Shown here in pieces: positions 8,926 to 48,114 of a stretch of 64,000 nt of DNA (its first letter is position 1; each line of letters begins with the position of its first letter). Below the pieces are notes generated by a model. The model did not search any database. It worked only from the letters and a program-made list of their open reading frames with translations, and was not told the origin of the DNA. Where the stretch lies: the IMG/VR virus record IMGVR_UViG_3300025018_000093, one strand, 5' to 3'. Made by a program: the position numbers and the translations under genes. Source of the stretch: a virus. Taxonomy: Duplodnaviria > Caudoviricetes.

Positions 8926-8962
8926 CTGACAAACTGTACCTGTTTACATAGATTGTGAACAG
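8926..8962 (+). promoter_or_regulatory. sigma70-like IS607 promoter overlapped by an inverted repeat
   Basis: CTGACA-N17-TAGATT (8926-8954); inverted repeat CTGTTTACA-tagat-TGTGAACAG (8940-8962) runs into SD AGGAGG. Confidence 0.55.
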
Positions 8963-24903: not shown

Positions 24904-24908
24904 GCAGT

Positions 24909-25499
24909 ATGCTAAAGCACACAGATCAGCAGAAATCACTTCTCCGGGAGGTGCTTACGGATATGCTTTCTCTCCTGCAGGCACAGCGATGGAACTACCA
25001 GACGTCGCACTGGCAGAGCCAGGGAGAGCCCTTCTATGGTGACCACCTCATGTTCCAGCGTCTCTATGAGAGTCTGGATGCGGACATCGATGGTTTGGCC
25101 GAGAAGATCCTCGGGCTTCTGGTGATGCCCGGGGATGATGCCTATCCCTTTGACAACACCACGCAAGCTACGAAGCTCTCCCAATGGCTGGAGAGTTGGA
25201 ACGTCTTTGACTGCCCCTACAAGCGTTCTCTCCAGAGCGAGCGCGACATGCAGACACTTTGGGCGAGGGGCTACGAGGTCTTGAAAGACACGGGGTCTCT
25301 GTCCTTGGGGTTAGATGACTGGGTGATGAGCACTGCGAGTGCCCATGAGACCAACCTGTATCTTCTCCAGCAGCGCATGCATGCGCAGGATCACATGCGC
25401 AAGGCGTCTCAGGACTTGACCCGAGCTTGGTATCTCAAGCCGTCTTCCAGTCGTCGTGGGCGAGAGTTCCATGCGGCGGAAGATAAGGAGTCTGATTGA
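24909..25499 (+). CDS. Dps/ferritin-like protein
   Basis: HWQSQGEPFYGDHLMFQRLYESLDADIDGLAEK keeps the Dps HW-x10-H...D-x3-E ferroxidase pattern. Confidence 0.75.
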   Translation: MLKHTDQQKSLLREVLTDMLSLLQAQRWNYQTSHWQSQGEPFYGDHLMFQRLYESLDADIDGLAEKILGLLVMPGDDAYPFDNTTQATKLSQWLESWNVFDCPYKRSLQSERDMQTLWARGYEVLKDTGSLSLGLDDWVMSTASAHETNLYLLQQRMHAQDHMRKASQDLTRAWYLKPSSSRRGREFHAAEDKESD

Positions 25500-29467: not shown

Positions 29468-32400
29468 ATGACGGGAGCCAAAGGAAGTCTAGGCGAATTG
29501 GCCCTTGGAGTGTCTCGCTCCAGGTCTGCCGTACGCGAAAGCGTCTCCGGTCAGGATGACTGTCCCAGTATTATTGACTTCATCGAAGCCCCCTGGGGCC
29601 TTGCCCAGAGGATGTTTCCAGTCCAGAAGGTCATTCTCAAAGCCTACTATGGCTTGGCTCTGGATACGAAGAAACGCAACGTTCGGATCACTGACTGGAA
29701 GCATCAGAACGAGCGCATTCTCACGGAAGCCGAGTACCTTGAGTGGCTTTACGAGCAGGGACGAAGCAATATCCGGGAAGTGGTCGCGGGGGACCGCCGT
29801 CGTGATCTAGTCCTGGCCATCGGACGTCGTTCTGGGAAATGTGTTTTGGGGGGCACCTTGGTCTTGACCAACCAAGGGCTACTCAAGATCCGTGACTTGC
29901 TTCCAGATCCGAATCTGCCCGAAAACCAGTCCGCGCCTTTGCGTGTGCAGGTGGCGCAGGAAGGAAGTCGTCGAGCGGACACCAGTCATTTCTACAATGG
30001 GGGTGTCAAGACAGTCCGTGAGTTGACGACACGGTGTGGGTACCAGCTTGGGGGGACGGACAATCATCGTATCAAGGTGCTGTATCCAGACGGTGCGGTG
30101 CGTTGGAAGTATCTGGCAGACTTGCGTGAGGGAGATATTGTGGCGGTCCATCGGGGGACAAACCTGTGGGCCGTAGATCCTGTAGATTGCCGTTCACACC
30201 ACGTGGCCTCTGGGCAGAAAGAGGTGCGTCTACCCGAGATCCTGGATGAACGCTGGGGCCTCTTGTTGGGGTGTCTTGTCGGAGACGGACATTGGACTAA
30301 GAGGTCCAGTGTTGCGATGACGATGGAAGATCCCGAGATGTGGGATCAGATGCAGGAGCTGTTCTCCGAGTTGCTCGGGCACAGCTCGACATACATGGAC
30401 AAGCGAACTGCAAACACAGGAGACCTCCAGTTTCATAGTGTTGCGGTTCGGGAGTTTCTGCACCGTCTTGGGTGGCGTTGGGATCTGGAGAGAGACCAGA
30501 AAGAGATACCCTGGTCGATTCTGCAATCTCCGAGGTCTGTTGTTGCTGCCTTCCTTCGCGGGTTGTTCGAGACGGATGGTTGCGCAGAGAGCCAGGGGCA
30601 AAGTGTTACTTTCTCTTCTGCTTCTGAGGTTCTAGCACGGCAGGTGCAGACCGTGCTGCTTAACTTCGGCATTGTCAGCTTTGTGTTCCCGAAGCCCGTG
30701 CATGACAAGACGTACTGGATTTTGCGGGTGCGTGGCACGAACTCCCGTCGCATATTTGCGCAGGAGATTGGGTTCCTGACTGATCGAAAGATGTGTCCGC
30801 TACTCGAATCTTTCAGGGAGGATCCTCGGGAGGGTGGGGACACCGAGGCAATCCCCTATCAGCAGGTTCTAGCGCGGCAACTTCTCGAATCGGTGCCCAA
30901 GAACGTTTCTGGTAAGGGATGGACGAGGTCTGCATTGCGTGCTGCTCTGGGGAATGTAATCAAGCCTTCTTCGGGTGAGCCGTTGACATACCCCAGGCTC
31001 CGAAAAGTCATCCAGATCGCTCGGGATGTAGAGGCACAAGACAGTGAGACTCTTGCCCACTTTCAGGGAGTTCTGGACACCAACTACTTCTTTGATCCCG
31101 TAGTCTCCATCACAGAGCGAGAGGAACAGGTATGGGATCTGACAGTCCCCAATGGCCATGCCTTTGTGGCCAACGGGATGGTCAATCACAACACCGAGAT
31201 GGCAGCCTGGATCACGTCTTACGAAATCTACAAGCTTCTGCGCAAGCCTAATCCCCAGGGGTACTACGGCATTCCTCCTGGAGACGAGATCAAGCTGTGT
31301 GCTGTGGCTACGGGTAGAGATCAGGCTGGGGAGCTATACGCCAAGGCGAAGCACTACTTCCTAGACTGCACCTTGTTCGACCCCTATCGGGCGAATATGA
31401 CGACCACCTACAGTCGTTTTCAGACCCAGCACGACATTGAAAGTTATGGGAGATACGGGGAGCACGACGTCACGCAGGCGACGATCAAAGCCACGTTCTA
31501 CTCCTGTATCGCAAAGGGTCTTCGTGGTGCTGGAAATATCGTGGTGGTGTTGGATGAGATTGCTCACTTTGTGACGAGTGGGCAGAGTTCAGGAAAGGAA
31601 GTCTATAAGGCGGTCACGCCTTCTATTGCTGCCTTCAGCCCTAAGGACCCGGACAAGTCCGTTTCGGCGGCACCCAGCCGAACAGATGGGCGAGTCATCC
31701 TGATTAGCTCCCCTCTGGGGAGAGATGGGTTCTTTTACCAGAAGTTTCGACAAGGGTTCGAACGTTCTGAGTCGATGCTGTGCATTCAGGCTCCAACGTG
31801 GGAGGTCAACCCTTCCATCTCGGCAGAGGACCTGGAAGGGTTCTACCTGGATGATCCCACAGATTTCTTCACGGAGTTCGGGGCAGAGTTCTCGGACCGT
31901 ACCCGAGGGTGGATTGAGCGCCGTGAGGATCTGGTGCATTGTATCGATCCAAAGTTGTCGCGACTCTTGAAAGCTCCGGCCCGGCAGCCGCACTTCATGG
32001 GGATCGACGTTGGTGTTACCAAAGGGGGCGACGGAACAGCTGTCGCCATTGGACACATTGACAAGAAACAGCAGATTGTCCTGGACTACATTGAGTGGAT
32101 ACGTGCTGGCGAGGGCAAGTACGCGCACCTGGAACGGCTGGACTTCGAGGATATTGCGGATTGGATTGTTTCCCTGGGGAAGAAGTTCCACATCACAGAG
32201 GGTATTATGGACCGCTGGGCGGGACTCCCAATGGAGCAGTACCTTCAGAAGAAGGGTATGCGTCAGATTGTCTCCCAGCTATTTACTCCGAAGGATACCA
32301 CGTTCATGTACAAGACCTTCAAGGACATGATGTGGGATGGTCGGCTTCGGTTGTACAACTGGCGACCCAACCCCACCGGGTCCTCAGGGGTGCTCCTGGG

Positions 32401-32764
32401 CAGTGCTGAGGAGGGCACTCTCTGTGATTACCTGGAAGAGCTGCTTAGTCTCCAGGAAGAGAAAATCAGCCGCCACGTCTCAAGTATTGAGGCACCCAAG
32501 TCTGGGGACAAGCATGACGACCGTTCGGATGCCCTGATTCGCATGGTATGGTTAGCAAGCCAGAAGCTCGGCAACCCCAAGTTTATTGCCGGGGGTGCCG
32601 GGGGTGCCTCTGCGTACGCCCGAGCAACGGGATATGGTAACCGTCCACAAACCCAGCTGGGCTTCTTACGCCGTGCCCGCTTGGGTGGAAGCCACCCAAG
32701 TCGACAGATCATCTCTCGGCTCACCGGAAATCCGGGTGGATTTCCGGGAGGAGGGAGGATGTGA
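29468..32764 (+). CDS. terL: terminase large subunit with intein
   Basis: Walker A GRRSGK|T split by the intein, Walker B VVVLDEIAHF, LISSP coupling motif, nuclease GIDVG...DDRSDA. Confidence 0.93.
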   Translation: MTGAKGSLGELALGVSRSRSAVRESVSGQDDCPSIIDFIEAPWGLAQRMFPVQKVILKAYYGLALDTKKRNVRITDWKHQNERILTEAEYLEWLYEQGRSNIREVVAGDRRRDLVLAIGRRSGKCVLGGTLVLTNQGLLKIRDLLPDPNLPENQSAPLRVQVAQEGSRRADTSHFYNGGVKTVRELTTRCGYQLGGTDNHRIKVLYPDGAVRWKYLADLREGDIVAVHRGTNLWAVDPVDCRSHHVASGQKEVRLPEILDERWGLLLGCLVGDGHWTKRSSVAMTMEDPEMWDQMQELFSELLGHSSTYMDKRTANTGDLQFHSVAVREFLHRLGWRWDLERDQKEIPWSILQSPRSVVAAFLRGLFETDGCAESQGQSVTFSSASEVLARQVQTVLLNFGIVSFVFPKPVHDKTYWILRVRGTNSRRIFAQEIGFLTDRKMCPLLESFREDPREGGDTEAIPYQQVLARQLLESVPKNVSGKGWTRSALRAALGNVIKPSSGEPLTYPRLRKVIQIARDVEAQDSETLAHFQGVLDTNYFFDPVVSITEREEQVWDLTVPNGHAFVANGMVNHNTEMAAWITSYEIYKLLRKPNPQGYYGIPPGDEIKLCAVATGRDQAGELYAKAKHYFLDCTLFDPYRANMTTTYSRFQTQHDIESYGRYGEHDVTQATIKATFYSCIAKGLRGAGNIVVVLDEIAHFVTSGQSSGKEVYKAVTPSIAAFSPKDPDKSVSAAPSRTDGRVILISSPLGRDGFFYQKFRQGFERSESMLCIQAPTWEVNPSISAEDLEGFYLDDPTDFFTEFGAEFSDRTRGWIERREDLVHCIDPKLSRLLKAPARQPHFMGIDVGVTKGGDGTAVAIGHIDKKQQIVLDYIEWIRAGEGKYAHLERLDFEDIADWIVSLGKKFHITEGIMDRWAGLPMEQYLQKKGMRQIVSQLFTPKDTTFMYKTFKDMMWDGRLRLYNWRPNPTGSSGVLLGSAEEGTLCDYLEELLSLQEEKISRHVSSIEAPKSGDKHDDRSDALIRMVWLASQKLGNPKFIAGGAGGASAYARATGYGNRPQTQLGFLRRARLGGSHPSRQIISRLTGNPGGFPGGGRM
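29840..31192 (+). mobile_element. intein with LAGLIDADG endonuclease (451 aa) in the TerL Walker A motif
   Basis: Starts CVLGGT; GTDNHR block B; LLGCLVGDG and LRGLFETDG; ends VNHN followed by +1 Thr. Confidence 0.93.
32677..32693 (+). repeat. 17-bp direct repeat, copy 1 (copy 2 at 33420-33436)
   Basis: CCGCTTGGGTGGAAGCC occurs at both positions. Confidence 0.85.
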
Positions 32765-33459
32765 TGCCAAAGCGACTTCCAAATGCTTCTGCCCAACTAG
32801 GTGCACACGTTCAGATCAAGGTGTCGCAGGCTGCCTCCGCGCTGAGCGAGATCCTGAGCATCATGGTGGAGCATGAGGGAAAGGTACGAAAAGCAAGAGG
32901 GGAGGCACGCCAGGACTTCTTGCGGGGTGTGCTCCGCATCCTGTCTCAGATTCACGTCTCTTCCACAGTTGTTGAAGATCAGGACTTGGGCCTTCGTACC
33001 CTCGGCAGTTTGGAACAAGAGTTGGAGTCTTTGGGTGCTGCAACGGGAGTCGGTATTCAAGAGATACTCTTGCACTCCCAGGGGGACTTGGAGGACACAC
33101 GAGAACGGATAACTCGACTGGAAGCTGTGCATGTGACTCTGGAGCGTGCTTTGACAATCCTTCAGGCTCCCGCGCAGAGACCTTCCAGTAGAGCAGGGCG
33201 CCTTCAGTTTGATCTTGATGCACGCCTCTCTTCTCTGCAGGGTAGGGTGGGGGATATGTTACGGTTGCTGGAAAGCACAAGGGATGCAGAGAGTTTGCGT
33301 TTTTCCTCTTTACGTCCACAAGTAGAGAAGGCTTTGGGGATGCTACACAGCGCTGGGGTTCTGCCCCGGAAGAGTTCCCGAAACTGGTGGCAGAACGAAC
33401 GTGAGATTCCCACCCGTAACCGCTTGGGTGGAAGCCGCTTGGTTGGGGCAAGTAAGTGA
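32764..33459 (+). CDS. hypothetical helical protein between terL and portal
   Basis: TGATG overlap with terL; L/E/R-rich heptads. Confidence 0.55.
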   Translation: MPKRLPNASAQLGAHVQIKVSQAASALSEILSIMVEHEGKVRKARGEARQDFLRGVLRILSQIHVSSTVVEDQDLGLRTLGSLEQELESLGAATGVGIQEILLHSQGDLEDTRERITRLEAVHVTLERALTILQAPAQRPSSRAGRLQFDLDARLSSLQGRVGDMLRLLESTRDAESLRFSSLRPQVEKALGMLHSAGVLPRKSSRNWWQNEREIPTRNRLGGSRLVGASK

Positions 33460-35237
33460 CAGACGTAACACAAGTTCAAGACGGTACCGTTGTTGCTCGT
33501 GTCCCTCGGCGCCCAGGGGTGCAGGTTGGAAAGCCCCGTCGTGTGGTGACCTCTGCTATGCGGTCGAAGTACGGCTTCGGGTGCAGTACGGGTGGCGGTG
33601 GCGGTAGCGGTGGTGGCTTCTTTTCTGGTGGGGGGTTTGGGAACATCGGGGGGACTACCTCTGGCTCTGGGGGTAACTTCTACAGCCCAGAGATGTCCAC
33701 GGACTTCTTGGAGATTGCCCAAAGTCTTGACGAGATGCGTCAATACTTTAGGTTCTTCTACGATAACGATGCCTTTGTCGGGCAAGCGTTGGACGTCCAC
33801 ACTGAGATCCCTCTCTCGAAGATTCGCCTAGGACTCCCCAAGGCCAAGAATGCAGAACTCTCGCAACGTGCCAAACGTTTCTGCGATAAGTGGCAGAAGC
33901 GCGTGCGGGGTGGTGGCGCCAGTGGTCTCCCTGGACTCATGTCTCGGCTTCTCGAAATCGTGCATGAGTACCATAAGATCGGAGAGGTGTTTATTTGGGT
34001 GGAGGACCCCTCCCCGGATGAACCTGAGGACTTGCGGTTTGAGATCCGCAGAACAGTCGGCAAGGATGGCAAAACCAGTGAGGAGAAGGTTGAGCGAGCC
34101 GATGCGGATGAGCGCCATCTGAAGTGGTTGCGGAAGAATTACAAGGGGTGGACGAAGATCGATATCTTCCCCCCGGAACAGATTCAGGTGGAGACGTTCC
34201 CCTTCTCGGATGAGGTTCTGATTCAGCTGGTCATCGACTCTAAGTCAAAGAGTATCGTTAACCAGGCGCAGACAGGGGACGAGGAAGCTATCCGCATTGT
34301 GGAGGGGATGCCCCCTGAAATTGTGGAGGCGATCCTCAATGGAGAGAGCAAGGTCACACTGAACACGGACCCCGAGAGGGGGAGTTTCGTAGCGTACCTG
34401 GCGCGCAAGAGAAGCCCCTACGAGAAACGTGGACGGTCCATACTTCAACGCTGCCTCCGCACACTGGTGTACCGGGACAAGCTACGCCAGGCTCAGACCA
34501 GTATCGCATCCCGCAATATGACGCCCACGCGAGTTGTCTGGGCAGAGGGAATGGATACGGGAGACATTGAAGCTCTGCGAGAGCAGATCGATATGTCTCT
34601 GATGGACCCAGACTACTCCATCATTGCGAACTATGAGTTGCATTGGGAGGAAATGTCTTCGAATGGGCGTCTTCTGGACTTGACGAGTGAGTACGATCTC
34701 ACGGACAGACAGCTCTATGCGGGTCTCGGTGTCACGGAAGGGCTTCTCTCTGGGGAAACCAGTTACAGTGGGGATAGAATCCACCTGGAGGTGATCAACA
34801 CCCGGTACATGCTTCTTCGGGAGATTGTTTCCACCTTCGTGGAGGAGATGCTTCTGAAGCCCATGTGCTCCCGTATGGGCTTCGTAGAGGAAGACGAAGA
34901 TGGTGACGAGGAGATCATCTCTCCTACGATCAGCTTCACTCGTTTGGGTTTGCGAGACAACGATTCCACCTTCGACCAGCTGTTCAATCTGTACCAGAAG
35001 GGCAGCCTCGATATTTGGACTATCTTCGAGCTGTTGAATGTGGACTCCCAGGTGGTCGAGGAACGCCTCTTCTCCTCTATTGGGAAAATCACAGACCCGA
35101 ACTTCAATGAGGTTCTTCGCGGCATGTACAGCAGGATTGGAGACGACTTGGCGGAGAAGTCGGATGCGTCGGAGCGTATTGCTGCCTACCTGGGCTATTC
35201 GTACACGAAAGCGGAAGAGGAAGGCGGGCGTTTCTGA
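33456..35237 (+). CDS. portal protein
   Basis: 593 aa after terL; FRFFYDNDAFVGQALDVHTEIPLS and RGRSILQRCLRTL, helical body; Gly-rich N-terminal insert. Confidence 0.75.
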   Translation: MTDVTQVQDGTVVARVPRRPGVQVGKPRRVVTSAMRSKYGFGCSTGGGGGSGGGFFSGGGFGNIGGTTSGSGGNFYSPEMSTDFLEIAQSLDEMRQYFRFFYDNDAFVGQALDVHTEIPLSKIRLGLPKAKNAELSQRAKRFCDKWQKRVRGGGASGLPGLMSRLLEIVHEYHKIGEVFIWVEDPSPDEPEDLRFEIRRTVGKDGKTSEEKVERADADERHLKWLRKNYKGWTKIDIFPPEQIQVETFPFSDEVLIQLVIDSKSKSIVNQAQTGDEEAIRIVEGMPPEIVEAILNGESKVTLNTDPERGSFVAYLARKRSPYEKRGRSILQRCLRTLVYRDKLRQAQTSIASRNMTPTRVVWAEGMDTGDIEALREQIDMSLMDPDYSIIANYELHWEEMSSNGRLLDLTSEYDLTDRQLYAGLGVTEGLLSGETSYSGDRIHLEVINTRYMLLREIVSTFVEEMLLKPMCSRMGFVEEDEDGDEEIISPTISFTRLGLRDNDSTFDQLFNLYQKGSLDIWTIFELLNVDSQVVEERLFSSIGKITDPNFNEVLRGMYSRIGDDLAEKSDASERIAAYLGYSYTKAEEEGGRF

Positions 35238-35269: not shown

Positions 35270-37558
35270 ATGTCAGCAGAGAACGGGAGCAAGTCGGGGA
35301 ATCGGATGGAGGTGGGGTTGTTCATTCCGCTCCCCGAAGTACTTGCCGAGGAGTGCCCCTCTCTGGCCCCGGAAGACAACTCAGTCCCTCACGTCACATT
35401 CCTGTATGTTGGAGAAGTACCCGGGGAACGGGAGGACGAGTTCCTCCAAGTGGTCCAGGAAGCTTTCTCTTCACTGGGTAATGTCCATGCTTCCCTAGGG
35501 AAGCTGAGTTACTTTGTACACCCCGAGCAAACCATCGCACACATGCGTGTGCGGTTTGATCAGGATCTGCGGGGTGCTCGTCAGCGTCTCCGTGAGTCTC
35601 TGGAGGCTGCAGGGTTCTCTGTGGAGGATAGCTACCCCCTTGTCTATCATCCACATGTCACCCTTGCCTACCTGGAGGGAACCGACCGAGTCTACGAAGG
35701 TCCCCGCCCTTACGGCGGGTGGACGTTCAATAGCATCGAAGTTTGGGGTCTTCCCCAGGTGCATACGGTGCGATTCGGGGTCAATCCTCAGAGAGTAGCC
35801 TTTGCGTGGAGTCTCGTTGCCAAGTACCAGAAAAAGGTCAAGGACGAGGAGGGGAACACGCATTATGAGTACGGACCTCGGCAGGTTGCGGAGCGACATA
35901 AGGAGAAGGCCAAGAAGGTTGAGAAGCTCCGCAAGTCTATAGGTGGTCTTCGGGAGCGTGTTCTCTCGGATCTCCAGGGAAAGGATGAGAAGAAACGCCT
36001 TCTGGCTTTGGTTGTGGCGCTAATTGATGCCACCTATGAGCGAGTGGGAAATGAGGACTCTGCCAAGGATGGCCACTTCGGTGTTACGGGGTGGCAGGCG
36101 CAGCACTTGGAGATTAAGGGAGATAAGGCAACAATCACGTATGTCGGGAAGAGTGGGGTCAACCAGAAGAAGGTTGTGGATGATCCTCGCATCCTGTCGG
36201 TGCTTCGAGAAGTGTCCAAGGACAAGTCTGGAAAAGATTCCTTGATGGCCTATGGGGAAGAGCAGCTCATTAGCTCTAAGGATGTCAACGAGTATCTCTC
36301 CAAGTTTGGGGTCACGGCCAAGGACTTGCGTGGCTTCCATGCCAATAGAGAGATGTCGGAGCGTTTGAAGAAGCTTCGGAAGAAGGGTCCTACCCTTCCG
36401 AAAGGTCGGAAGGAAAAGGATGACGTCTTGCGGAAGGAGTTTGAGAAAGCTCTTGCGGAGACTGCGGATGCTGTAGGGCACGAGGAGGCCACGCTTCGCT
36501 CGGAGTACCTAGTGCCAGGGTTGGAGGATGACTTTCTCCACGACGGGACGGTTTTGGACACGTACCTGAAGAAGGGCACCAAGACGCGGACGCAAGCCGA
36601 GGATGAGGAGGTAGAACGCCTGGTTCGTCCAAGCCCGAAAAAGAAGCCCCCAAGGAAGGACAAGCGGCGGAATCAAGTTCAGATCAAAGACTCGGACCTA
36701 GGCCAGGGTGACCGGGGGGACGATAAGGACTTGTCTTTGAACTACAAACGTGTTGGTGGCGAAAAAATTCGTCAATCGACGTCCTATAACGAGACTCTTA
36801 TAGGCGAGAGGGTAGGGCATGGTGAGGGGATTCCTCCACTGTTCTCTCAAACCGCCGCCATGCATTGGAGGGAAGACATGCCTCGAAGAATGACTAAGAA
36901 GGGCGCTCAGCAAGTTGTGGTTGAATTGGACCGTCTCGCCAGTGTGATGCAAGATCACTGGGAAGCGCTGGGCGTTCCGAAGAGGGCAGCCTTGGATCTG
37001 GCATACCGCTGTGATCTCCTGTCGGACTACATCGAGAAGAGTGCTGGTCTCCAGCCCTCGGTGAAGAACGAGGGGTTTGATCCCTCGGAAATCGCCGCAG
37101 AAGAGTCCGGTGCGCTGGAGAGCAACAAGGACGAAGCCTACACTAAGAAGAACTTCACGGAGCAGGAGCACCGCGAGCTTCGCGAGAAGCAGGAAGCTGG
37201 AAAGCTCCCTAGCGCGGAGAAGTTGGCTTCCCAGCATGGCTTCAATCTGTTTGCCTCCGACTTCTACAAGCTGTCACCCATCCTTTTGGGTGAAGTGAAG
37301 GCGGATGTCGCGCAGAGGTTTGAGGAAGATCCTAGCAGACGTCGCATCTACAACGTGGATGCCATTCTGCGAGAGGTTGCCAGAGATTATTGGCAACAGA
37401 CTTCGAAGGATGATCGGTTTGATCTCATGAGTGCTCTTGATCCTGGCGTGGGAGTTAAGAGTGTTGCTTTGAGCCAGAATGTAAGACAGATCCCCGTCGA
37501 GATTGCAAAGAGACTTCTCACCAAAGAGCGCAAGTGGGCAGAGAGCTTGCTCAGATAA
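35270..37558 (+). CDS. multidomain protein: 2H phosphoesterase + topoisomerase IB-like domain + head-protein domain
   Basis: PHVTF and PHVTL (two HxT motifs); ERVGN, YVGKSG, AKDLR, VGHE, SEYL (TopoIB pentad); C-terminal domain paralogous to the 37603 ORF. Confidence 0.85.
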   Translation: MSAENGSKSGNRMEVGLFIPLPEVLAEECPSLAPEDNSVPHVTFLYVGEVPGEREDEFLQVVQEAFSSLGNVHASLGKLSYFVHPEQTIAHMRVRFDQDLRGARQRLRESLEAAGFSVEDSYPLVYHPHVTLAYLEGTDRVYEGPRPYGGWTFNSIEVWGLPQVHTVRFGVNPQRVAFAWSLVAKYQKKVKDEEGNTHYEYGPRQVAERHKEKAKKVEKLRKSIGGLRERVLSDLQGKDEKKRLLALVVALIDATYERVGNEDSAKDGHFGVTGWQAQHLEIKGDKATITYVGKSGVNQKKVVDDPRILSVLREVSKDKSGKDSLMAYGEEQLISSKDVNEYLSKFGVTAKDLRGFHANREMSERLKKLRKKGPTLPKGRKEKDDVLRKEFEKALAETADAVGHEEATLRSEYLVPGLEDDFLHDGTVLDTYLKKGTKTRTQAEDEEVERLVRPSPKKKPPRKDKRRNQVQIKDSDLGQGDRGDDKDLSLNYKRVGGEKIRQSTSYNETLIGERVGHGEGIPPLFSQTAAMHWREDMPRRMTKKGAQQVVVELDRLASVMQDHWEALGVPKRAALDLAYRCDLLSDYIEKSAGLQPSVKNEGFDPSEIAAEESGALESNKDEAYTKKNFTEQEHRELREKQEAGKLPSAEKLASQHGFNLFASDFYKLSPILLGEVKADVAQRFEEDPSRRRIYNVDAILREVARDYWQQTSKDDRFDLMSALDPGVGVKSVALSQNVRQIPVEIAKRLLTKERKWAESLLR

Positions 37559-37602
37559 CTCTTGTGCATGGCTTTCAACCTGTTTGTGAAGGGAAGAACA
37601 AG

Positions 37603-38037
37603 ATGGCCGTAACCAAAAAAGGTGCCCTCCAGGTGAGCCAGGCTATGGACCGCCTCGCCTCTCTGTTTCAACAGGATCATGCGGTGATGGGTGTCGCCCC
37701 ACGCATCGCAGAGGACTTCGCGATTCGCTTGGACCGAATGTCGGATCTGGTGGAAAAGAGTGCGGGTGTGGTACGGGCAGAGTGGTTTGATAAGGATGTG
37801 GATGGGGACTTCGATCCTCGGGAGGTTGGCAAGGCGACGCCTTCACAGGATGACGATGAGCCCTACGTCCGGGACAACTTCACGCAGCAGGAGTTCAGTG
37901 AGCTGTCCAGCAAGCAGAACACGGGTCAGCTCCCGTATGCGGATGTTCTCCCTGAGCAGGATATGATGGGAAAGCTAGCAAAGGCGGCTGAGGCGCTGGT
38001 TTCCCTGACACAAGAGCTGAAAGCTCGTAACCGTTGA
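37603..38037 (+). CDS. hypothetical head-cluster protein, paralog of the preceding C-terminal domain
   Basis: TKKGA.QV...DRLAS...EKSAG...FDP.E...NFT.QE shared with the 35270 ORF. Confidence 0.7.
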   Translation: MAVTKKGALQVSQAMDRLASLFQQDHAVMGVAPRIAEDFAIRLDRMSDLVEKSAGVVRAEWFDKDVDGDFDPREVGKATPSQDDDEPYVRDNFTQQEFSELSSKQNTGQLPYADVLPEQDMMGKLAKAAEALVSLTQELKARNR

Positions 38038-38045
38038 GGCTCCTA

Positions 38046-38702
38046 ATGCCTATCCGCAAGAGAGCTACATACATCAATCAACAGCAGCGGGCTACCGAGT
38101 TTCAAGTCGGGCAGCCCGTAACGCATTGGGGGCATCCGATTGAGGAATCGGGTCGTGTGACCGCAGTGTGGCCGGCTATTGGTCAGGTTGACGTGCAGTT
38201 CCCTTGGGGCAACGTTCGGGTTCCCGTTGAAGACCTCCAGATCATTGCAGACAGCACTTGGATTGTCACCCCGAAGAATGACAATACCCCAGGCGGAACA
38301 GCTACCCTGGTTTCGGGTGGTCCCTTTACGCTGAAGGATGCTCCCTATGATCCTCTTCCCCTCCCCGTGAAGGTGAAGACGGCTTCCCCTAGTCTGGAAC
38401 GTGTCGTGGTGGCCTACGTCAAGAAGGCTATCTACTGGCAGGAAAAGAATCGGAAGTACAGGGTCAGCCAGGGCGAGCGAGACAGTGGTAGCTTCCATTG
38501 TCCGCGTTGCAAGGAAACGATCCTTCGGGACGCCATCTACAAGCGCGAAGAGGGGCAGAGTGTGCGTCTTCTGGGTTGCCCCTCGTGTCTCTTTCTGGTC
38601 AAGAAGGAAGACTTGCTTGGGGTCGAGTCTTCCGCACCGGATTTGGAAGTTGCTATCCCCCAGGGAAAGAGCGTCATGATTCGCCTACTGCGGGGTGAGT
38701 GA
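38046..38702 (+). CDS. hypothetical protein with SH3-like and Zn-ribbon segments
   Basis: GRVTAVWPAIGQVDVQFP; CPRC...CPSC. Confidence 0.65.
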   Translation: MPIRKRATYINQQQRATEFQVGQPVTHWGHPIEESGRVTAVWPAIGQVDVQFPWGNVRVPVEDLQIIADSTWIVTPKNDNTPGGTATLVSGGPFTLKDAPYDPLPLPVKVKTASPSLERVVVAYVKKAIYWQEKNRKYRVSQGERDSGSFHCPRCKETILRDAIYKREEGQSVRLLGCPSCLFLVKKEDLLGVESSAPDLEVAIPQGKSVMIRLLRGE

Positions 38703-38703
38703 G

Positions 38704-40143
38704 ATGGCATTCCTTCGTTATGCATATGCGCAGGACATCCGCCAAGTCAGCTCCAAGACCTGGAGCAAGATACGAGTTTCGTCCACGACGGCGACTATCA
38801 GTCCCAACCTCCTGGAGCAGGCTAGCGAAATTCTGCACGAGCACTTCGATCCGAATAAGTACCTCCTGTCTCACGCCACTATCGTGGCCAGTGTGGACAC
38901 GTATGATGTTCCTGGGGTTGTCACAGGGAACATCAAGGAGGGCAGTCGAACAATCCAGCGCAAGTTCTCCAACTATCGAATCCTCCCCGAGTGCGATCCT
39001 TGGATCAACAACAACAATGACTCCTGGGAACGTCGTGTTCTGCTCAAGAGCTATGCCACTTTTGTTGGTGGGCACAACTTCGTAGAGCACGTTCAGATTG
39101 AGGAGCAAAGCAAGGGTCGCATCCTGGATGCTTGCGCGAGGGACATTGGGGACTCCGTCTACGTCGACATCCTGATTGCCACGGCGAAGAAGCACAAGTC
39201 CCTGATCAACTCCATCCAGTCTGGGGAGATGGGGACCCTGTCGATGGGGTGCTCTATTGACTTCTCTCAATGCACTAAATGTGGACATGTGGCTGTTGAC
39301 GAAGCCGATATGTGCCCCTGCGTGCGGTATGAGAAGGGCAACTACTTCTATGATGATTCCGGTCGTCGGCACCGCGTAGCCGAACTCTGTGGGCATCACT
39401 CTGTGAATCCCACAGGGGGTGTGCGATTCATCGAAGGATCTTGGGTCGGTGTTCCTGCCTTTGGTGGAGCTGTCTTGCGTACCATCCTCACCCCCGAGGG
39501 TGTCTCCGCAGAGCATTTGAAGCGGGCTCAGGCCCTGCTGATGAATCCTCCGAAGGTGTGGTCTCGTGATGTCCTCCAGGGTATTGCCAAGGCAGCTACC
39601 CTGTTGGCTTCTGCGAAGAAAGCCGCGTTCGACTTTGGAGGCGAAGAGGACGAGGCTGATGCTGACACCGGTGGTGAAACTGGTGGAAGCTCCGATGGTG
39701 GTGGGACTTTGAAGGAGCTGGAGGATGCAGCCTCGAAAGAGGTTGTCCGACGGCTCAAGAAGAAGCTCCAGGATGAAATCAACCCACCGCAACCTGTGGA
39801 CAAGACGAAAGAGTCTATCACGGATGAGGAGCTTAATCGGCAAGCTGCAGCACAACGTCTGTGGGTTGGAAATGTCTATCGAGACACCATCCAGACCATC
39901 ACAAAGATGGCTAGCTCAGACGTAGAGTTGATTAATGGGGTTGCCCAAGTCAACAATTCGTTCGGTGTAGAAGTCCCGGTCGAGTTATACCGGGCAGCGT
40001 TGAGGGTAGGATCGACCACCCGTCACCATGATCCTCGGAAATATCTCCGGGCATGTGGGCAGGTAATGGGTCGGACGCCAACCCTGGGGGAGTCGCGAAC
40101 TCTAGTCCGACTCGGTAACCTGCTCGCTCGCTTGAGCGGCTGA
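38704..40143 (+). CDS. putative prohead (maturation) protease with Zn-finger insert
   Basis: NFVEH...KGRILDA, LSMGC (candidate catalytic Ser), CTKCGH, GVPAF; position portal-protease-scaffold-capsid. Confidence 0.65.
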   Translation: MAFLRYAYAQDIRQVSSKTWSKIRVSSTTATISPNLLEQASEILHEHFDPNKYLLSHATIVASVDTYDVPGVVTGNIKEGSRTIQRKFSNYRILPECDPWINNNNDSWERRVLLKSYATFVGGHNFVEHVQIEEQSKGRILDACARDIGDSVYVDILIATAKKHKSLINSIQSGEMGTLSMGCSIDFSQCTKCGHVAVDEADMCPCVRYEKGNYFYDDSGRRHRVAELCGHHSVNPTGGVRFIEGSWVGVPAFGGAVLRTILTPEGVSAEHLKRAQALLMNPPKVWSRDVLQGIAKAATLLASAKKAAFDFGGEEDEADADTGGETGGSSDGGGTLKELEDAASKEVVRRLKKKLQDEINPPQPVDKTKESITDEELNRQAAAQRLWVGNVYRDTIQTITKMASSDVELINGVAQVNNSFGVEVPVELYRAALRVGSTTRHHDPRKYLRACGQVMGRTPTLGESRTLVRLGNLLARLSG

Positions 40144-40163
40144 CACAAGGGAGGTTTGCATAA

Positions 40164-41750
40164 ATGGGACGCAAACGAATGACCTGGACTCAAAGTAGAC
40201 GTGCTTCGGCGCCACCCGCAATTCCCGGCTATGATGACGCAGGGTACAGACACCCCGCTCACCAGACTCCGGATCCTGACTCGGACCAGTACGAGAACGG
40301 GGACATAAGTTCTTGGGCAGAGGACGTGCATCCGCCGCCCTACCAGAATAGCCGTCACCCCGCTGTCCCTACAGAGTCCGGTGGCTACAACCATCCGGCA
40401 GGCAACCCTGCCAATCTCAAGCAGGCTATGTATCGCAAGGCACATAAGTGCATTCGCATTGCACAGACCCTGCTTGGCCCGAGGGCAACAGTTGCACAGA
40501 TCGAGAACAAGGCGCTTTCGATGTTGGACTGGCCCGAGCGGAAGGTCCAGGCTTCTCTGAAGCACATTGCCTCTTCGCGTCAGGCCGCCTCTTCGCGTCG
40601 CTCTTGCGGTGAGATGGGCATGTACGGCATGTACGGACAGGATGACATGGATCTTCCGAATGCCGGCATGTATGAGGATGACATGGACGACATGGGTCTG
40701 TACGGCATGGATGACGAGTTGGGCATGGATGACGAGTTGGACATGGACGACGAGTTGGGCATGTTTGACGAGGAAGAAGACGAAGGCATGTCTATGCTCG
40801 ATGATGACTTCGATGATGACTTCGAGGAGGACTTCGAGGAGGACTTCGAGGAGGACATGTACGGGATGCTCGATGACTATGAGCAGGGCGATCCCGTCAT
40901 GGGTCCGCAGCGCATGGCTTCGCAAGAGGACAGAATGCTGGCCTCGATGCTTCGCGAAGCTCGCGTCAAGAAGCAGAATCGCTTCGCGGGTCTTGATGCA
41001 ACAGAGAAGCGGATGCTAGCTTCGATGCTTCGTCAGGCTGCTGCGGAAGAGGAAGTGGAAGAGGAAGTGGACGAGGAAGAGGAAGAGGGTGCCAAGAAGA
41101 AGGCTCGCTCTCGGAAGGCCGTCTCCACTCGTCGTGCTCTCACCCGTCGTCGTGCTGCTGAGGACGAAGAAGAGGGTGCTGAGGACGAAGAAGAGGAAGA
41201 GGGAGCTAAGAAGAAGGCTCGCCGCAACCGCGACCTGGATCCGATGGGTCTGATGGACGATCCGATGGACCGTCTGGCCTCCAAGGGAGAGGATGCGGAG
41301 CTTCGTGCCCTTTTTGAGAATGATCTCTTTGCGGCAGCTGCTCGTGTAGCTGCTGGGGAAGAGGACGAGGAAGAGGGTGCTGAGGAGGACGAGGAAGAGG
41401 GTGCCAAGAAGAAGGCTCGCTCTCGTAAGGCCGTCTCCACTCGCCGTAACCCCCTCCGTCGCCGTGCGGCTGACGAAGAGGAAGAAGACGAGGATGAGGA
41501 CGAGGACGAGGATGAGGACGAGGATGAGGAAGAGGAAGAGGAGGGAGCCAAGAAGAAGGCCACCCGCCTCGCTTCCGCACAGCGCCCTCGCCCCCGCAAG
41601 CCCGCTCGCAGTGGGTCGCCTCGCCGTCTCGGAAACATCCATACGGCTTCCTCCGGTGGCGAGCTCAACGAACTGTCGCAGCTCTGGGCTTCCGCTCCCG
41701 ATATCAGTGAGACCTTCGGGATCACGGAGACGAACCTCGACGTGGAGTGA
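40164..41750 (+). CDS. putative scaffolding protein, very acidic and repeat-rich
   Basis: Between protease and capsid genes; poly-E/D tracts alternating with KKKAR/RRRAA blocks. Confidence 0.6.
   Translation: MGRKRMTWTQSRRASAPPAIPGYDDAGYRHPAHQTPDPDSDQYENGDISSWAEDVHPPPYQNSRHPAVPTESGGYNHPAGNPANLKQAMYRKAHKCIRIAQTLLGPRATVAQIENKALSMLDWPERKVQASLKHIASSRQAASSRRSCGEMGMYGMYGQDDMDLPNAGMYEDDMDDMGLYGMDDELGMDDELDMDDELGMFDEEEDEGMSMLDDDFDDDFEEDFEEDFEEDMYGMLDDYEQGDPVMGPQRMASQEDRMLASMLREARVKKQNRFAGLDATEKRMLASMLRQAAAEEEVEEEVDEEEEEGAKKKARSRKAVSTRRALTRRRAAEDEEEGAEDEEEEEGAKKKARRNRDLDPMGLMDDPMDRLASKGEDAELRALFENDLFAAAARVAAGEEDEEEGAEEDEEEGAKKKARSRKAVSTRRNPLRRRAADEEEEDEDEDEDEDEDEDEEEEEEGAKKKATRLASAQRPRPRKPARSGSPRRLGNIHTASSGGELNELSQLWASAPDISETFGITETNLDVE
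40707..40856 (+). repeat. coding tandem repeats (MDDELG x3; DFEE x3)
   Basis: 18-bp unit x3 from 40707; (GACTTCGAGGAG)3GAC at 40818-40856. Confidence 0.9.
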
Positions 41751-41759
41751 GACTACGGC

Positions 41760-41933
41760 ATGCTCAAGCTCAGTTTTAGATCCAAGCGGTTTGCGCCCAC
41801 GCACACCATCTACTTTGAAGATGAATGGAACCAGTACGAGATGCAGGTTCAAGTTGACGAAGTAGATGGCATGGCCTGGGATGAGGACGGTGAGGCGGTA
41901 GCTGAGCGAAAGCGTCTGGGAGCCCCTTGGTAA
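41760..41933 (+). CDS. small hypothetical protein (57 aa, not in the ORF track)
   Basis: MLKLSFRSKRFAPTHTIYFEDEWNQYEMQVQVDEVDGMAWDEDGEAVAERKRLGAPW, read manually. Confidence 0.45.
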   Translation: MLKLSFRSKRFAPTHTIYFEDEWNQYEMQVQVDEVDGMAWDEDGEAVAERKRLGAPW

Positions 41934-42028
41934 ATCTTGGATGACAAGCTAAGGGTTGATCCCAACTATACTGTGCGAAAGGTGAAGCCCCTTTCCTGAT
42001 TCGACTTACACCCCGATGAGCCAAGTTG

Positions 42029-42065
42029 ACCGCCGTAGTTCTTCTGAACTGCGGCGGTTTTTTTT
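42029..42065 (+). terminator. Rho-independent terminator
   Basis: ACCGCCGTAGTTC-ttct-GAACTGCGGCGGT followed by a T run. Confidence 0.85.
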
Positions 42066-42188
42066 CAATAGCCGTTCGATACCTCCACCTTATCTGTGGA
42101 AGGAGAGCATGGTGCTCTCAATCTTAGATGGGGAGGACTAGTAGTGGTCACTTCTCATAACCCGCACCTCTGAACAGGGAGAATCGAT

Positions 42189-42872
42189 ATGACAGACAAG
42201 ATTCTTGGAGAGGCGTCGGGAGGTTGGACAGAGTCTTCGTCGGCATTGCGTCTTCTTCAACCCGGTATCCGAAACAGTTTGGATGTCCTGGTCGATGATG
42301 CGTTCACACAGACGAATCCGCCCAACGTCCGGACGGCGGGAACAGTCAGCACACAAGTCAACACTCGGATGTTTGGTGTGCCAGGCGGTTCCATTGCTTT
42401 TGTGCGACCCGACGCTCTTGGCGAAGGGTTCGTGGGCGGAAACGTGGAGGGTCTCGACGACGCCAGTCTGGAGACTTTCGTTCGTCCGCTGGGTGTGTTC
42501 ATCAACAACGCGAACGGAAACGCATACGAGAACCTCCCTGGCCAGGCCAGTGGGAAGGGTCCGTATATGTCTTCGCAGGGCGTCTACGGGAACGCACTTT
42601 TCGAGACACAGATCCTGGACGGTGATGCGATCACCGGGTTCGCTACCGGGGACACCATCCCCTACGTGGCGGGCGTGGAACTGATCGCAAGCCGCAACGG
42701 GTATCTGATGCCCCGGGATGCCATCGACGGTGGTGGTACCGTCCGATCTTTGGACGTCGCCGGTTGTGCCGCTGAGGTTGAGCATGGTCGCAGTGCTTCG
42801 ACGCTGATTGCCATCCTCAAGGTGCCTGCGGATTCCAACATCAACGAACTGATTTACGATCAGCGAATCTGA
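42189..42872 (+). CDS. putative head decoration/capsid-associated protein
   Basis: Immediately upstream of the capsid gene; SD GGGAGA; G/A/V/T-rich beta-type composition. Confidence 0.55.
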   Translation: MTDKILGEASGGWTESSSALRLLQPGIRNSLDVLVDDAFTQTNPPNVRTAGTVSTQVNTRMFGVPGGSIAFVRPDALGEGFVGGNVEGLDDASLETFVRPLGVFINNANGNAYENLPGQASGKGPYMSSQGVYGNALFETQILDGDAITGFATGDTIPYVAGVELIASRNGYLMPRDAIDGGGTVRSLDVAGCAAEVEHGRSASTLIAILKVPADSNINELIYDQRI

Positions 42873-42886
42873 GGGAGGAATCAGAC

Positions 42887-43774
42887 ATGGCCACATCAGG
42901 ACGGAACATTAGTGCCAAGCAGAAGCGTGAGATCATTGCTCGCTACCTGTCGACCCAGAATGGTCGGCACAAGCTGGCTGCCAGTCTCACCCAGCCGCTT
43001 CGCCTTCGCCGCGACTACTCGGCGGTCGGTCGTAAGACCTTCCTCGTGGAGCAGTTGCCGGATGGGGCTCTCCCCATCTATGACAAAGACCCCGATGTCA
43101 CTGCCTTCGTGATCGGTGAAGAGGGTGAGAACATTGTCGCGATGGTGAAGAGCCGCCGCGTGCTGTTCCCGCTGTTCGAGATCGCCTCGAACCCGGAAAT
43201 CCCCCTGACCCAGATCAAGGAGCGTCGGTACGACCTCATCGAGCGTTCGCAGGATCTCGCGCGTGCCGAGATTCAGGCTGCGGAAGACTCTCGCGTCTTC
43301 TCCATCCTGGACTCCATCGCCGTCTCCGGCTTCGATTCGGTTCCTGGTCAGACCAACCCCGACATCCCGGTTGTCGCACCCCTCAACGGTGCTGTGCTGG
43401 CTGACGCTTTCGCATCCATCGAGCGCCACGACCTTCGCGTCGCCCGTATGTACATGAACGCCGTCGACTACGCCGACATCCGCAAGTTCGGTCGTGACAT
43501 CCTCGACACCGAGACGCAGCAGAGCTTGCTCCGTACCGGCCTCATGGGGACGCTGTGGGGAGCCCAGCTCATCACCAGCCGTCTCGTGCCCGCTGGGACA
43601 GTGTACTGCTGCTGTGACCCGGAGATGTTCGGTAGGATTCCAGTACGCACTGAGCTTACCGTTCTCTCTGCCGACGATCCGAAGGCTCGCACCATCGGTT
43701 TCTCGGTCTTCGAGAACATCGGTATCGGCGCGTACAACCCGCGCGGTCTCGTGCGCTTGAGCATCAGCCGCTAA
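42887..43774 (+). CDS. major capsid protein, compact HK97/encapsulin-like fold
   Basis: SD GGGAGG; strongly C-ending codons; LAASLTQPLRLRRDYSAVGRK, LPDGALPIYDKD, C-terminal IGAYNPRG; terminator follows. Confidence 0.85.
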   Translation: MATSGRNISAKQKREIIARYLSTQNGRHKLAASLTQPLRLRRDYSAVGRKTFLVEQLPDGALPIYDKDPDVTAFVIGEEGENIVAMVKSRRVLFPLFEIASNPEIPLTQIKERRYDLIERSQDLARAEIQAAEDSRVFSILDSIAVSGFDSVPGQTNPDIPVVAPLNGAVLADAFASIERHDLRVARMYMNAVDYADIRKFGRDILDTETQQSLLRTGLMGTLWGAQLITSRLVPAGTVYCCCDPEMFGRIPVRTELTVLSADDPKARTIGFSVFENIGIGAYNPRGLVRLSISR

Positions 43775-47215: not shown

Positions 47216-48114
47216 TGGGCAAGATACGAGGAGAGCGAGGGGTGTGTACAGCTGAGCAAGAGGACATTTTCCCGGAGGTGGATTACAGCGATGCCAAGTC
47301 TGTCATTGCTGCTCTCCAGCAGGATCGGAGTACCGTGAGCATGCAGGAGCTGCAACGTCCAGACCGTGCTCTGGTACTGGAGGAAGTCGCCAAGTGGGTG
47401 CGGTCCCAGCCTGAGATGTCGGAGCTGAAGCAGGGCATTCTGGAGGTGTGTTTGATCCTGCACATCCCGGATGCAGCCGAGGATGGGCTTATCCCGGTGG
47501 ACCCGGATGCAGCTGCCGTGATCTTCTCTATCCTGCTAGAGGAGAAGGCAGGAGTTTCCTCTCTGCTCTATCCCTTTCTGGTTATGCTCCAGAATGAGGA
47601 TCGTGGGGGACTGTTCCAGGAAACGGACTTGCGGCGCCGTCTCCCAGAGAAGATGGGAGTCCCACTAGAGAGTATCGAAGGGGAGCTGAAAGCAGCCCTC
47701 AAGTTGCTCCGTGACAGAGGGGTTCTTGTATGGTACGCGGATGGGGGCATGTACCTGGACCGCCACTATATTCAACCCTCTCGTGAGGAGTTGAAGGCTG
47801 CGGGGTACTTCTCTCTCCCCACTGTGCTAGGGGAGACTCCCTCGGAGTTGTATGACGTGGAGATCCCCAAAGGTCTTACTCCCTTCCAGAATCTTGAAAA
47901 AGGGGGTGTTATGCCGTACGGCGTGAATATGGGTGCAGCCGAGAGAAAGAGTTCCTCAGACAAGGCGCTTCTCGTCTACATCGAGAAGCTCGGATCGGAG
48001 GTGTGGGTACCCAAGTCCGTCATCCACGATGGCTCCGAGGTGTACGAGGGTGGGGATGGAGAAGGGGACTTGGTCGTCAAATCCTGGTGGGCTGAAAAGG
48101 AAGGTTGGGAATGA
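47215..48114 (+). CDS. hypothetical protein with small C-terminal beta domain (KALLV...WVPKS)
   Basis: ATG overlapping the previous stop; ATGA overlap with def. Confidence 0.55.
   Translation: MGKIRGERGVCTAEQEDIFPEVDYSDAKSVIAALQQDRSTVSMQELQRPDRALVLEEVAKWVRSQPEMSELKQGILEVCLILHIPDAAEDGLIPVDPDAAAVIFSILLEEKAGVSSLLYPFLVMLQNEDRGGLFQETDLRRRLPEKMGVPLESIEGELKAALKLLRDRGVLVWYADGGMYLDRHYIQPSREELKAAGYFSLPTVLGETPSELYDVEIPKGLTPFQNLEKGGVMPYGVNMGAAERKSSSDKALLVYIEKLGSEVWVPKSVIHDGSEVYEGGDGEGDLVVKSWWAEKEGWE

Follow-up and report, generated by a model that had tools for sequence, protein, structure and literature searches.

The internal proteins IPI-III and Alt of phage T4 are loaded via a capsid-targeting sequence, processed by gp21, and ejected. 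Phage polyvalent proteins and fusion effectors of the MuF/SPP1 gp7 type were described by Iyer, Burroughs, Anand, de Souza, and Aravind (2017; PMC5512222). Among the packaged-effector architectures described there are fusions of a 2H phosphoesterase domain with a MuF or a portal domain; whether these 2H domains act as RNases or on RNA ends, or degrade signals instead, was left open in that paper (PMC5512222). Among type IB topoisomerases (TopoIB), vaccinia H6R is listed as a known virion enzyme (PMC1540416), and the TopoIB genes of the cultured jumbo phages phiRSL1, Lu11, PaBG, Motura, and NCTB are discussed as coding for replication or topology enzymes (PMC7824862). Here, we describe an open reading frame (ORF) of a tailed virus (Duplodnaviria; Caudoviricetes; IMG/VR record IMGVR_UViG_3300025018_000093) that joins a 2H and a TopoIB domain next to the portal gene. 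The ORF (35270–37558, + strand) lies in a stretch of 64,000 nucleotides, referred to as the window, which represents part of the genome of a huge uncultured phage; its product of 762 amino acids (aa) is termed P0001.

Behind the two enzyme domains, P0001 carries two conserved modules, modA and modB, the second of which is a paralogue of the next gene in the head module. In related phages, the same portal-adjacent position, here called the slot, is occupied by proteins in which various enzymes are combined with modA and modB. P0001 is a member of a large, so far undescribed protein family whose probable role is the loading of enzymes into the capsid. For P0001 itself, the balance tips towards a prohead-anchored cargo polyprotein that would be packaged and delivered together with the DNA.

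Domain organization of P0001

The reading frame is uninterrupted and begins 32 nt past the portal stop codon. An AGGGAG-like ribosome-binding site is located 6–7 nt upstream of the ATG at 35270, and alignments of homologues begin at residue 1–2; the database gene call P0002 (750 aa) uses M13 as the start. Another nine cluster representatives (P0003–P0011), which originate from other metagenomes, align with P0001 over the 2H region, TopoIB, modA, and modB, and six of these nine have a precomputed Pfam annotation of the 2H domain. Because these representatives align across all modules, an assembly artefact as the source of the fusion was rejected; the architecture recurs on independent contigs. 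A sequence-only reading of this DNA had proposed a polyprotein of a 2H enzyme, a TopoIB, and a head-protein paralogue beside the portal, and had itself named an artificial fusion as one possible flaw. The architecture is confirmed by the Pfam matches, the paralogy, and the match of the upstream gene (33456–35237) to the portal family phrog_16240 (E 2.5e-23). The individual features pointed out in that reading, namely two HxT motifs in the first ~170 aa, all five catalytic positions of TopoIB, a C-terminus paralogous to the next head gene, and RVA/KLAS-type motifs at the domain borders, were likewise recovered, the last as real recurrent motifs of the clade.

The N-terminal domain matched the Pfam family 2_5_RNA_ligase2 (PF13563) with 39.6 bits (cut-off 27; E 6.8e-10). 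It contains the HxT motif twice, as H41-V-T43 and as H129-V-T131; H41, T43, and H129 were invariant in 28 of 28 homologues and T131 was conserved in 27 of them. The AlphaFold2 model of the domain had a predicted local distance difference test (pLDDT) score of 92.5, and its fold matches were 2H proteins. The top Foldseek match was drCPDase (5h7e; E 4.9e-9), followed by E. coli LigT and further by LigT/ThpR-type proteins of P. horikoshii and T. thermophilus; 5h7e was also the top sequence match in the PDB, with weak significance (E 0.099). The best NCBIfam model was TIGR02258. Since its score (29.8 bits) was under the equivalog cut-off (65.7) and the identity to LigT/ThpR phosphodiesterases was only 14–19%, the domain is assigned to a distinct phage clade of the superfamily and not considered a ThpR/LigT orthologue. 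In a library of viral structures, the best fold match was 33% identical and is probably a 2039-aa protein of virus Rctr197k; the next matches were actinophage proteins, some of them annotated as structural or capsid-morphogenesis proteins. The 2039-aa hypothetical protein Rctr197k_173 (KX853510.1; L006 775–6894) contains near its C-terminus a 2H domain 34% identical to that of P0001. A nearby gene in the Rctr197k cluster is annotated as "similar to structural protein", and Rctr197k_173 may be another polyvalent head protein.

The TopoIB domain was identified by PF01028 (aa 208–408; E 3.5e-24; 85.9 bits, cut-off 23.7). The phmmer alignments to D. radiodurans TopIB (2f4q) and variola TopIB (2h7f) span all five catalytic motifs, while the alignment to 6z01, the second-ranked PDB match, ends at aa 369. 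The catalytic residues are R258 (ERVG), K294 (GKSG), R354 (KDLR), H404 (GH), and Y413 (SEYL), and this pentad was invariant in 78 of 78 homologues. The alignments start at residue 62–66 of the solved enzymes, and only ~15–25 residues are present upstream in P0001, after the 2H domain. A telomere resolvase or a tyrosine recombinase was rejected because the profile and PDB matches are specific to TopIB.

The C-terminal half was divided by mapping 120 homologues onto P0001. The first module, modA, is a highly conserved linear motif of ~65 aa with a mean column identity of 57% over 87 sequences, among which six positions are invariant (P24, K27, P28, R30, D32, and D55, motif numbering). It is predicted to be disordered (pLDDT 50–66) and has no match in Pfam, NCBIfam, or PHROG. 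In modB, a helical hairpin (aa 543–591) was predicted with pLDDT >90. The segment aa 541–655 is 42% identical to the next ORF (E 2e-23), which is the sole further copy of modA or modB in the window. The module was also aligned with a paralogue in L002 and detected by tblastn in L001, L004, L005, L008, and L009; it has no match to any Pfam family. Neither modA nor modB nor the C-terminal tail matched Pfam (E ≤ 10) or NCBIfam (E ≤ 1), and the sole PHROG hit of P0001 (E ≤ 0.01) covers the TopoIB region. The fold prediction for aa 430–762 was mostly disordered (mean pLDDT 57.6), and the ESM Atlas model of P0001 gave only matches with a template modelling (TM) score <0.4. The tail of P0003 is similar in length to the 100-aa tail of P0001, with a loose alignment.

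Stand-alone modB proteins end with an acidic spacer followed by KKAS-x-[FY][DN]LF. This arrangement is scaffold-like, as it recalls scaffold proteins that touch the shell with their C-terminal tail. In P0001, the corresponding motif K-x-A-S-x-[FY][DN]LF was found not at a free C-terminus, as 100 residues follow it.

Two types of short motif mark the module borders of P0001, RVA at aa 175–177 between 2H and TopoIB and KLAS at aa 651–654 after modB. The two copies of the RVA helix (RVAFAW and SLVAKY), which are adjacent in P0001, flank an inserted module in P0004, P0006, P0008, and P0009. In 248 family proteins, R[VI]A..[WFY] was observed 196 times compared to 8.6 expected by shuffling, a count that is inflated by homologous positions, and up to four copies are present per protein. 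The motif R-V-A-x-x-[WFY] is located right after modA in many members, before TopoIB, or between 2H and DUF5661. It also forms the N-terminus of a stand-alone nucleotidyltransferase (L004/L005), and further small head-module proteins of both loci begin with a close variant of it. Occurrence at the N-termini of single enzymes as well as at fused borders is the expected outcome if genes that once stood alone, each with its tag, were joined without losing it. Looser versions (ARRVLDRYV and ARKVIAAYL) open two window ORFs upstream of the terminase gene. A loose pattern, [RK]V...[YW], is so frequent in the window that it carries no meaning by itself, and only the stricter family-level motif was kept. 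The second motif, [KR][KLM]A[SA], occurs nine times in the head-module proteins encoded at 35270–43774, where ~0.7 were expected, and is much rarer elsewhere in the window, according to a post hoc test. Herpesvirus assemblin, whose fold is shared by phage prohead proteases, cuts at Ala-Ser, and on this analogy R/K-x-A|S is a reasonable guess, and no more than a guess, for the cleavage site of the protease.

The portal-adjacent slot and its surroundings

The gene order large terminase (TerL) – portal – slot protein – modB protein – ~210-aa Zn-ribbon protein – protease – acidic scaffold – ~225-aa protein – major capsid protein (MCP) is kept in the closest relative (163-kb contig), in contigs of 109, 140, and 370 kb, and in the 485-kb phage LR745208.1, for which the reading relies on the ORF order and on matches limited to TopoIB, modA, and modB. 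It is also kept in a contig with a slot protein of 3196 aa (2H + HAD_SAK + TopoIB + modA). The slot adjoins the portal gene in every locus examined, and its proteins range from 500 to 3196 aa. The constant part across the loci is modA followed by modB. In L001, L004, L005, and L008, the TopoIB protein ends in modA and modB opens the next gene; in P0001, the two are fused. The loci L004 and L005 encode 2H, a CCA/polyA-type nucleotidyltransferase, HAD_SAK, and TopoIB on separate genes located between the portal and the modB gene, some of them single-domain and some multi-domain. Among 29 long proteins with an internal modA, TopoIB was present in 21, PolyA_pol in ten, 2H in three, and HAD_SAK in two. 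Precomputed annotations of the family add PAP2, NUDIX, GNAT, Ham1, GGACT, and the fungal tRNA-ligase CPD domain. Slot proteins with modA and modB and without TopoIB occur as well (P0089–P0121). The slot takes interchangeable enzyme cargo on a modA/modB core.

The extent of the family was assessed with a modA profile search against 1.84 billion cluster representatives. The motif was found in 563 representatives at E ≤ 1e-3 (472 at E ≤ 1e-10), with lengths of up to 3196 aa. It constitutes the first ~68 residues of ~950–1300-aa proteins without a recognizable domain; elsewhere it is internal, downstream of TopoIB, or at the extreme C-terminus of TopoIB proteins. For mining metagenomic phages for putative capsid cargo, modA and the RVA helix offer practical markers, and they could also be used to direct engineered cargo into the capsids of laboratory phages.

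The features of P0001 and its surroundings are compiled in Table 1. Nearly all long ORFs of the window are on the + strand, and their products include RecA, SbcCD-like proteins, a clamp loader, TnpB, a peptide deformylase, terminase, portal, the protease candidate, and MCP. The end of the portal protein (...GGRF-stop, 35226–35237) is conserved in all four aligned relatives. The LLASAKKAAFDFGG sequence of the protease candidate is also present in L002, and KKAAFDFGG in this protein is similar to the terminal KKAS-x-[FY][DN]LF of modB proteins. The scaffold-like protein (40164–41750) is extremely acidic, with the EEGAKKKA unit repeated four to five times; relatives share its C-terminal sequence LW.SAPD...F.G, which differs from the modB tail. 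Several core genes of the clade are interrupted by LAGLIDADG nucleases or inteins, in the window those for the terminase (29468–32764) and an SbcD-like phosphoesterase (5704–7914), in relatives those for the protease and the portal (L002 11539–15642; both genes on the 370-kb contig). Directly after the capsid gene, an 855-aa fusion of helix-turn-helix, LAGLIDADG_2, N6/N4 DNA methylase, and zinc finger is encoded (43903–46470). Further genes code for a TnpB/Cas12f-like protein (OrfB_IS605 + TNB domain; 8955–10616) inside the phage genome, a phage-encoded peptide deformylase (48105–48758; PF01327, E 3e-45), and, in the operon upstream of the terminase gene, a 201-aa protein that matches the PHROG DNA-binding protein family phrog_3636 and has an RKAS site near its end (24894–25499; E 7.7e-9).

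Table 1. Coordinates of P0001, its modules, and neighbouring features (window positions unless a locus is named)
Feature	Position	Strand	Remarks
P0001, whole ORF, 762 aa	35270..37558	+	2H - TopoIB - modA - linker - modB - KLAS/HGFNLF motif - 100-aa tail
2H phosphoesterase domain, aa ~14-170	35309..35779	+	PF13563; HxT at H41/T43 and H129/T131
Border segment PQ-RVAFAW-SLVAKY, aa 173-186	35786..35827	+	Two adjacent R-V-A-x-x-[WFY] copies, second degenerate
TopoIB catalytic region, aa ~188-432	35831..36565	+	PF01028; R258, K294, R354, H404, Y413
modA, aa 433-497	36566..36760	+	ATK..E.EDEE.ERLVRPSPKKKPPR.D.RR...D.D....D.DLSLNYK; predicted disordered
modB, aa 541-650	36890..37219	+	Helical hairpin and conserved extended segment; paralogue of next gene
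KLAS-Q-HGFNLFA, aa 651-662	37220..37255	+	Like C-terminal tail motif of modB proteins, internal here
Helical tail of 100 aa, aa 663-762	37256..37555	+	Low model confidence
Next gene, small stand-alone modB protein, 144 aa	37603..38037	+	Likely start ATG 37603, not GTG 37534
Zn-ribbon protein, ~210 aa	38034..38702	+	Conserved; always between modB protein and protease
Prohead protease candidate	38695..40143	+	phrog_18299, E 2.6e-9; carries LLASAKKAAFDFGG, resembling modB tail motif
Acidic repetitive scaffold-like protein	40164..41750	+	EEGAKKKA repeats, R-[LM]-A-S sites
Major capsid protein	42887..43774	+	phrog_2522, E 3.7e-53
Large terminase with LAGLIDADG intein	29468..32764	+	Domain and PHROG searches
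Portal protein	33456..35237	+	phrog_16240, E 2.5e-23; 58% identical to L008 portal
R-V-A-x-R-[WFY]-L helix sites	L004 6427-13465; L005 5992-10004; window 35786-35827, 20735-20790, 22226-22280

Proposed role of P0001 and alternative explanations

From the arrangement of modules and genes, we infer the following course of docking, packaging, cleavage, and ejection and the following substrates. The C-terminal half with modA, modB, and KLAS-HGFNLF would dock P0001 into the assembling prohead core beside the portal. The N-terminal 2H and TopoIB domains, both with intact active sites and presumably independent of cofactors, would stay in the capsid and exit with the DNA. With less certainty, the prohead protease might release the enzymes at the motifs of the module borders; given packaging, cleavage at these sites is about as probable as its absence. 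On entry, TopoIB would relax the torsional stress of the very long genome without ATP or host enzymes, and RNA ends that nuclease defences of the host leave as 2',3'-cyclic phosphates would be opened by the 2H domain.

The idea of a head-associated cargo protein, already put forward in the sequence-only reading, gains support because the synteny is kept, modB is shared with scaffold-like proteins that have a conserved tail, and enzymes interchange on the modA/modB core; packaging, proteolytic release, injection, and relaxation of the DNA are the conjectural part of that idea. Further points in favour of the cargo reading are the invariant active sites, the RVA motif on single enzymes and fused borders alike, the similar 2H folds of actinophage proteins annotated as structural or capsid-morphogenesis proteins, and the precedents of 2H joined to MuF or portal domains (PMC5512222) and of vaccinia H6R as a virion TopoIB (PMC1540416). 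Several points weigh against packaging and delivery. No fold match was found for modA and most of the C-terminal third, which are predicted to be disordered, and neither MuF nor MPTase nor any further known packaging domain turned up in a Pfam search of P0001, P0100, and P0089 (E ≤ 10). As HGFNLF is internal in P0001 and 100 residues come after it, a C-terminal tail would be free only upon cleavage, and the proposed cleavage sites are themselves suggested by a post hoc motif enrichment. In addition, should modB proteins act as scaffolds do, they may be expelled or degraded before the DNA is packaged.

The same gene order and motifs can be explained in other ways. TopoIB might act in or at the capsid during packaging or ejection, and not as an early effector; as an ATP- and Mg-independent swivelase held close to the portal through modA and modB, it would relieve the twist that arises as several hundred kilobases of DNA move in or out. 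This would fit the dominance of TopoIB among the slot enzymes (21/29), its usual location just before modA, the basic S-P-K-K-like core of modA, which could bind DNA, the placement of the gene beside that of the portal at all loci examined, and the size of the genomes, the clade being one of huge phages with contigs from 140 to 485 kb. However, the RNA-end enzymes in the same slot would be left unexplained, the slot proteins with modA and modB that have no TopoIB (P0089–P0121) do not fit, and no precedent was found in the open-access literature. Such a tethered swivelase is considered unlikely.

An equally low probability is assigned to P0001 being a late cytoplasmic enzyme, involved in concatemer or recombination topology and in RNA-end processing, which is merely co-transcribed with the head genes and whose modA and modB serve another interaction. 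The C-terminal part has no recognizable fold, the TopoIBs of cultured jumbo phages are discussed as replication or topology enzymes (PMC7824862), and packaging of P0001 is something we infer. A purely cytoplasmic function is nevertheless difficult to reconcile with a slot that is strictly kept between portal and protease over wide divergence, with the presence of modB in small proteins with scaffold-like tails, and with the same motifs on the protease, the scaffold, and the N-terminus of MCP.

Regarding the 2H domain, the sequence-only reading had offered two activities, anti-defence against CBASS (cyclic-oligonucleotide-based antiphage signalling) and RNA repair. The first would make the domain an Acb1-like destroyer of CBASS or other cyclic-oligonucleotide signals right after injection, a possibility raised for the 2H domains of polyvalent proteins (Iyer et al., 2017, PMC5512222). 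The 2H fold and its active site are intact, viral 2H enzymes do degrade 2'-5' or cyclic nucleotide signals, and a poxvirus phosphodiesterase for cyclic GMP-AMP (rank 29) and, in the viral structure library, PaBG Acb1 (rank 48, TM 0.48) are distant fold matches of the 2H model. On the other hand, the nearest neighbours in sequence and structure are the RNA 2',3'-cyclic phosphodiesterases LigT/ThpR, T4 Acb1 did not appear within the first 50 PDB fold matches, and no sequence match of the domain to Acb1 was found. The nucleotidyltransferase, HAD_SAK, the fungal tRNA-ligase CPD domain, and PAP2, which co-occur in the family, also point to the repair of RNA ends. Signal degradation is therefore judged improbable, and of the two activities the healing of 2',3'-cyclic phosphate RNA ends is favoured, because the domain is nearest to LigT/ThpR in sequence and modelled fold and because RNA-end enzymes are found in the same slot.

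Least probable is that the 2H domain opens 2',3'-cyclic phosphate nicks left at ribonucleotides in DNA by its own TopoIB, with the fused phosphatases of relatives finishing the healing, as most slot TopoIB members have no 2H domain, the nucleotidyltransferase cargo would be left unexplained, and we know of no 2H enzyme that acts on DNA nicks. Its basis is the incision by TOP1 at ribonucleotides embedded in genomic DNA, which yields unligatable 2',3'-cyclic phosphate nicks (PMC13131469, PMC5027487), together with the repeated fusion of 2H, HAD, and PAP2 phosphatases to this TopoIB clade.

If the cargo reading of P0001 is extended to the whole clade, a capsid-loading system not described so far can tentatively be proposed. 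It would consist of the portal-adjacent slot, enzymes marked by the RVA helix, and an anchor of modA and the scaffold-like modB; the main payload would be a virion TopoIB, the first outside poxvirus-like viruses, accompanied by an RNA-end kit of 2H, HAD, and CCA-adding enzymes. A phage with such a system would arrive with ready-made functions for DNA topology and tRNA repair. Packaging of P0001 would extend the polyvalent-effector idea to a new anchor system and a new class of payload, an ATP- and metal-free DNA swivelase plus RNA-end healing enzymes in phages of several hundred kilobases. It would also provide a handle on the DNA topology of huge phages at entry or packaging, and on how defences that cleave tRNA or RNA are pre-empted.

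Comparison with known systems

Among the 2H proteins, the LigT/ThpR enzymes (drCPDase 5h7e, E. coli LigT 5ldm, TIGR02258) are the closest to the P0001 domain by both sequence and fold and contain two HxT motifs, too. T4 Acb1 shares the superfamily fold and the HxT chemistry, but differs in the lack of a sequence match and in its position outside the top 50 PDB fold matches.

The poxvirus TopIBs (vaccinia H6R, variola 2h7f) and the bacterial enzyme 2f4q have the same catalytic pentad as P0001, the fourth position of which is His in P0001 as in poxviruses. Compared to the solved enzymes, P0001 aligns only with the end of their N-terminal domain, and its TopoIB is joined to a 2H domain and putative head-docking modules in a tailed phage. 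The cultured jumbo phages and the RHEph12-like Rhizobium phages likewise encode a TopoIB in large genomes. Only the genes of the Rhizobium phages were detectable from P0001 (~25% identity), and modA and modB were not seen in any of these cultured phages. In contrast to P0001, the RHEph12 gene is located near PAAR and tail-fibre genes and not near the portal. Other records that matched P0001 at E ≤ 1e-3 were the huge phage LR745208.1 and Rctr197k, the latter in the 2H region only. In the open-access literature, no head-module or virion TopoIB of a phage was found.

The proposed route of P0001, that is, loading into the prohead core by a short portable sequence, release by a protease, and ejection, resembles that of IPI-III and Alt of T4, which are also named in PMC5512222. 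A short sequence that is a candidate for a comparable tag, the RVA motif, is found repeatedly at the start of head-module enzymes in the P0001 clade; it has no sequence relation to the T4 capsid-targeting sequence. The proposed anchor of P0001 additionally includes a whole domain common to core or scaffold-like proteins.

Together with the T4 capsid-targeting system, the polyvalent proteins and MuF-fusion effectors are the nearest counterpart. Like these, P0001 combines unrelated enzyme domains in one polypeptide encoded among the late genes of the portal-terminase region, directly beside the portal; 2H is among their described cargo, and they, too, are predicted to be packaged and to travel with the DNA (PMC5512222). 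With at least two unrelated effector domains in the portal-terminase context, P0001 has one of the traits of a polyvalent protein. The hallmark domains of this group (MuF, portal fusion, MPTase, DarA-N, and similar domains) were not detected by Pfam in the three proteins searched for packaging domains. A relationship to MuF/SPP1 gp7 (PF04233) is not supported, since Pfam and NCBIfam match nothing in modA, modB, or the tail and the PHROG hit covers the TopoIB region; only the position after the portal is in common. The constant part of P0001 is instead formed by modA and modB, which belong to no Pfam family, and, for modA, to no PHROG. The domains that appear in the text of PMC5512222 do not include TopoIB, the commonest cargo of the slot. 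The clade of P0001 is distinguished from the described polyvalent effectors by its proposed anchor and payload and by its taxon, the huge uncultured phages.

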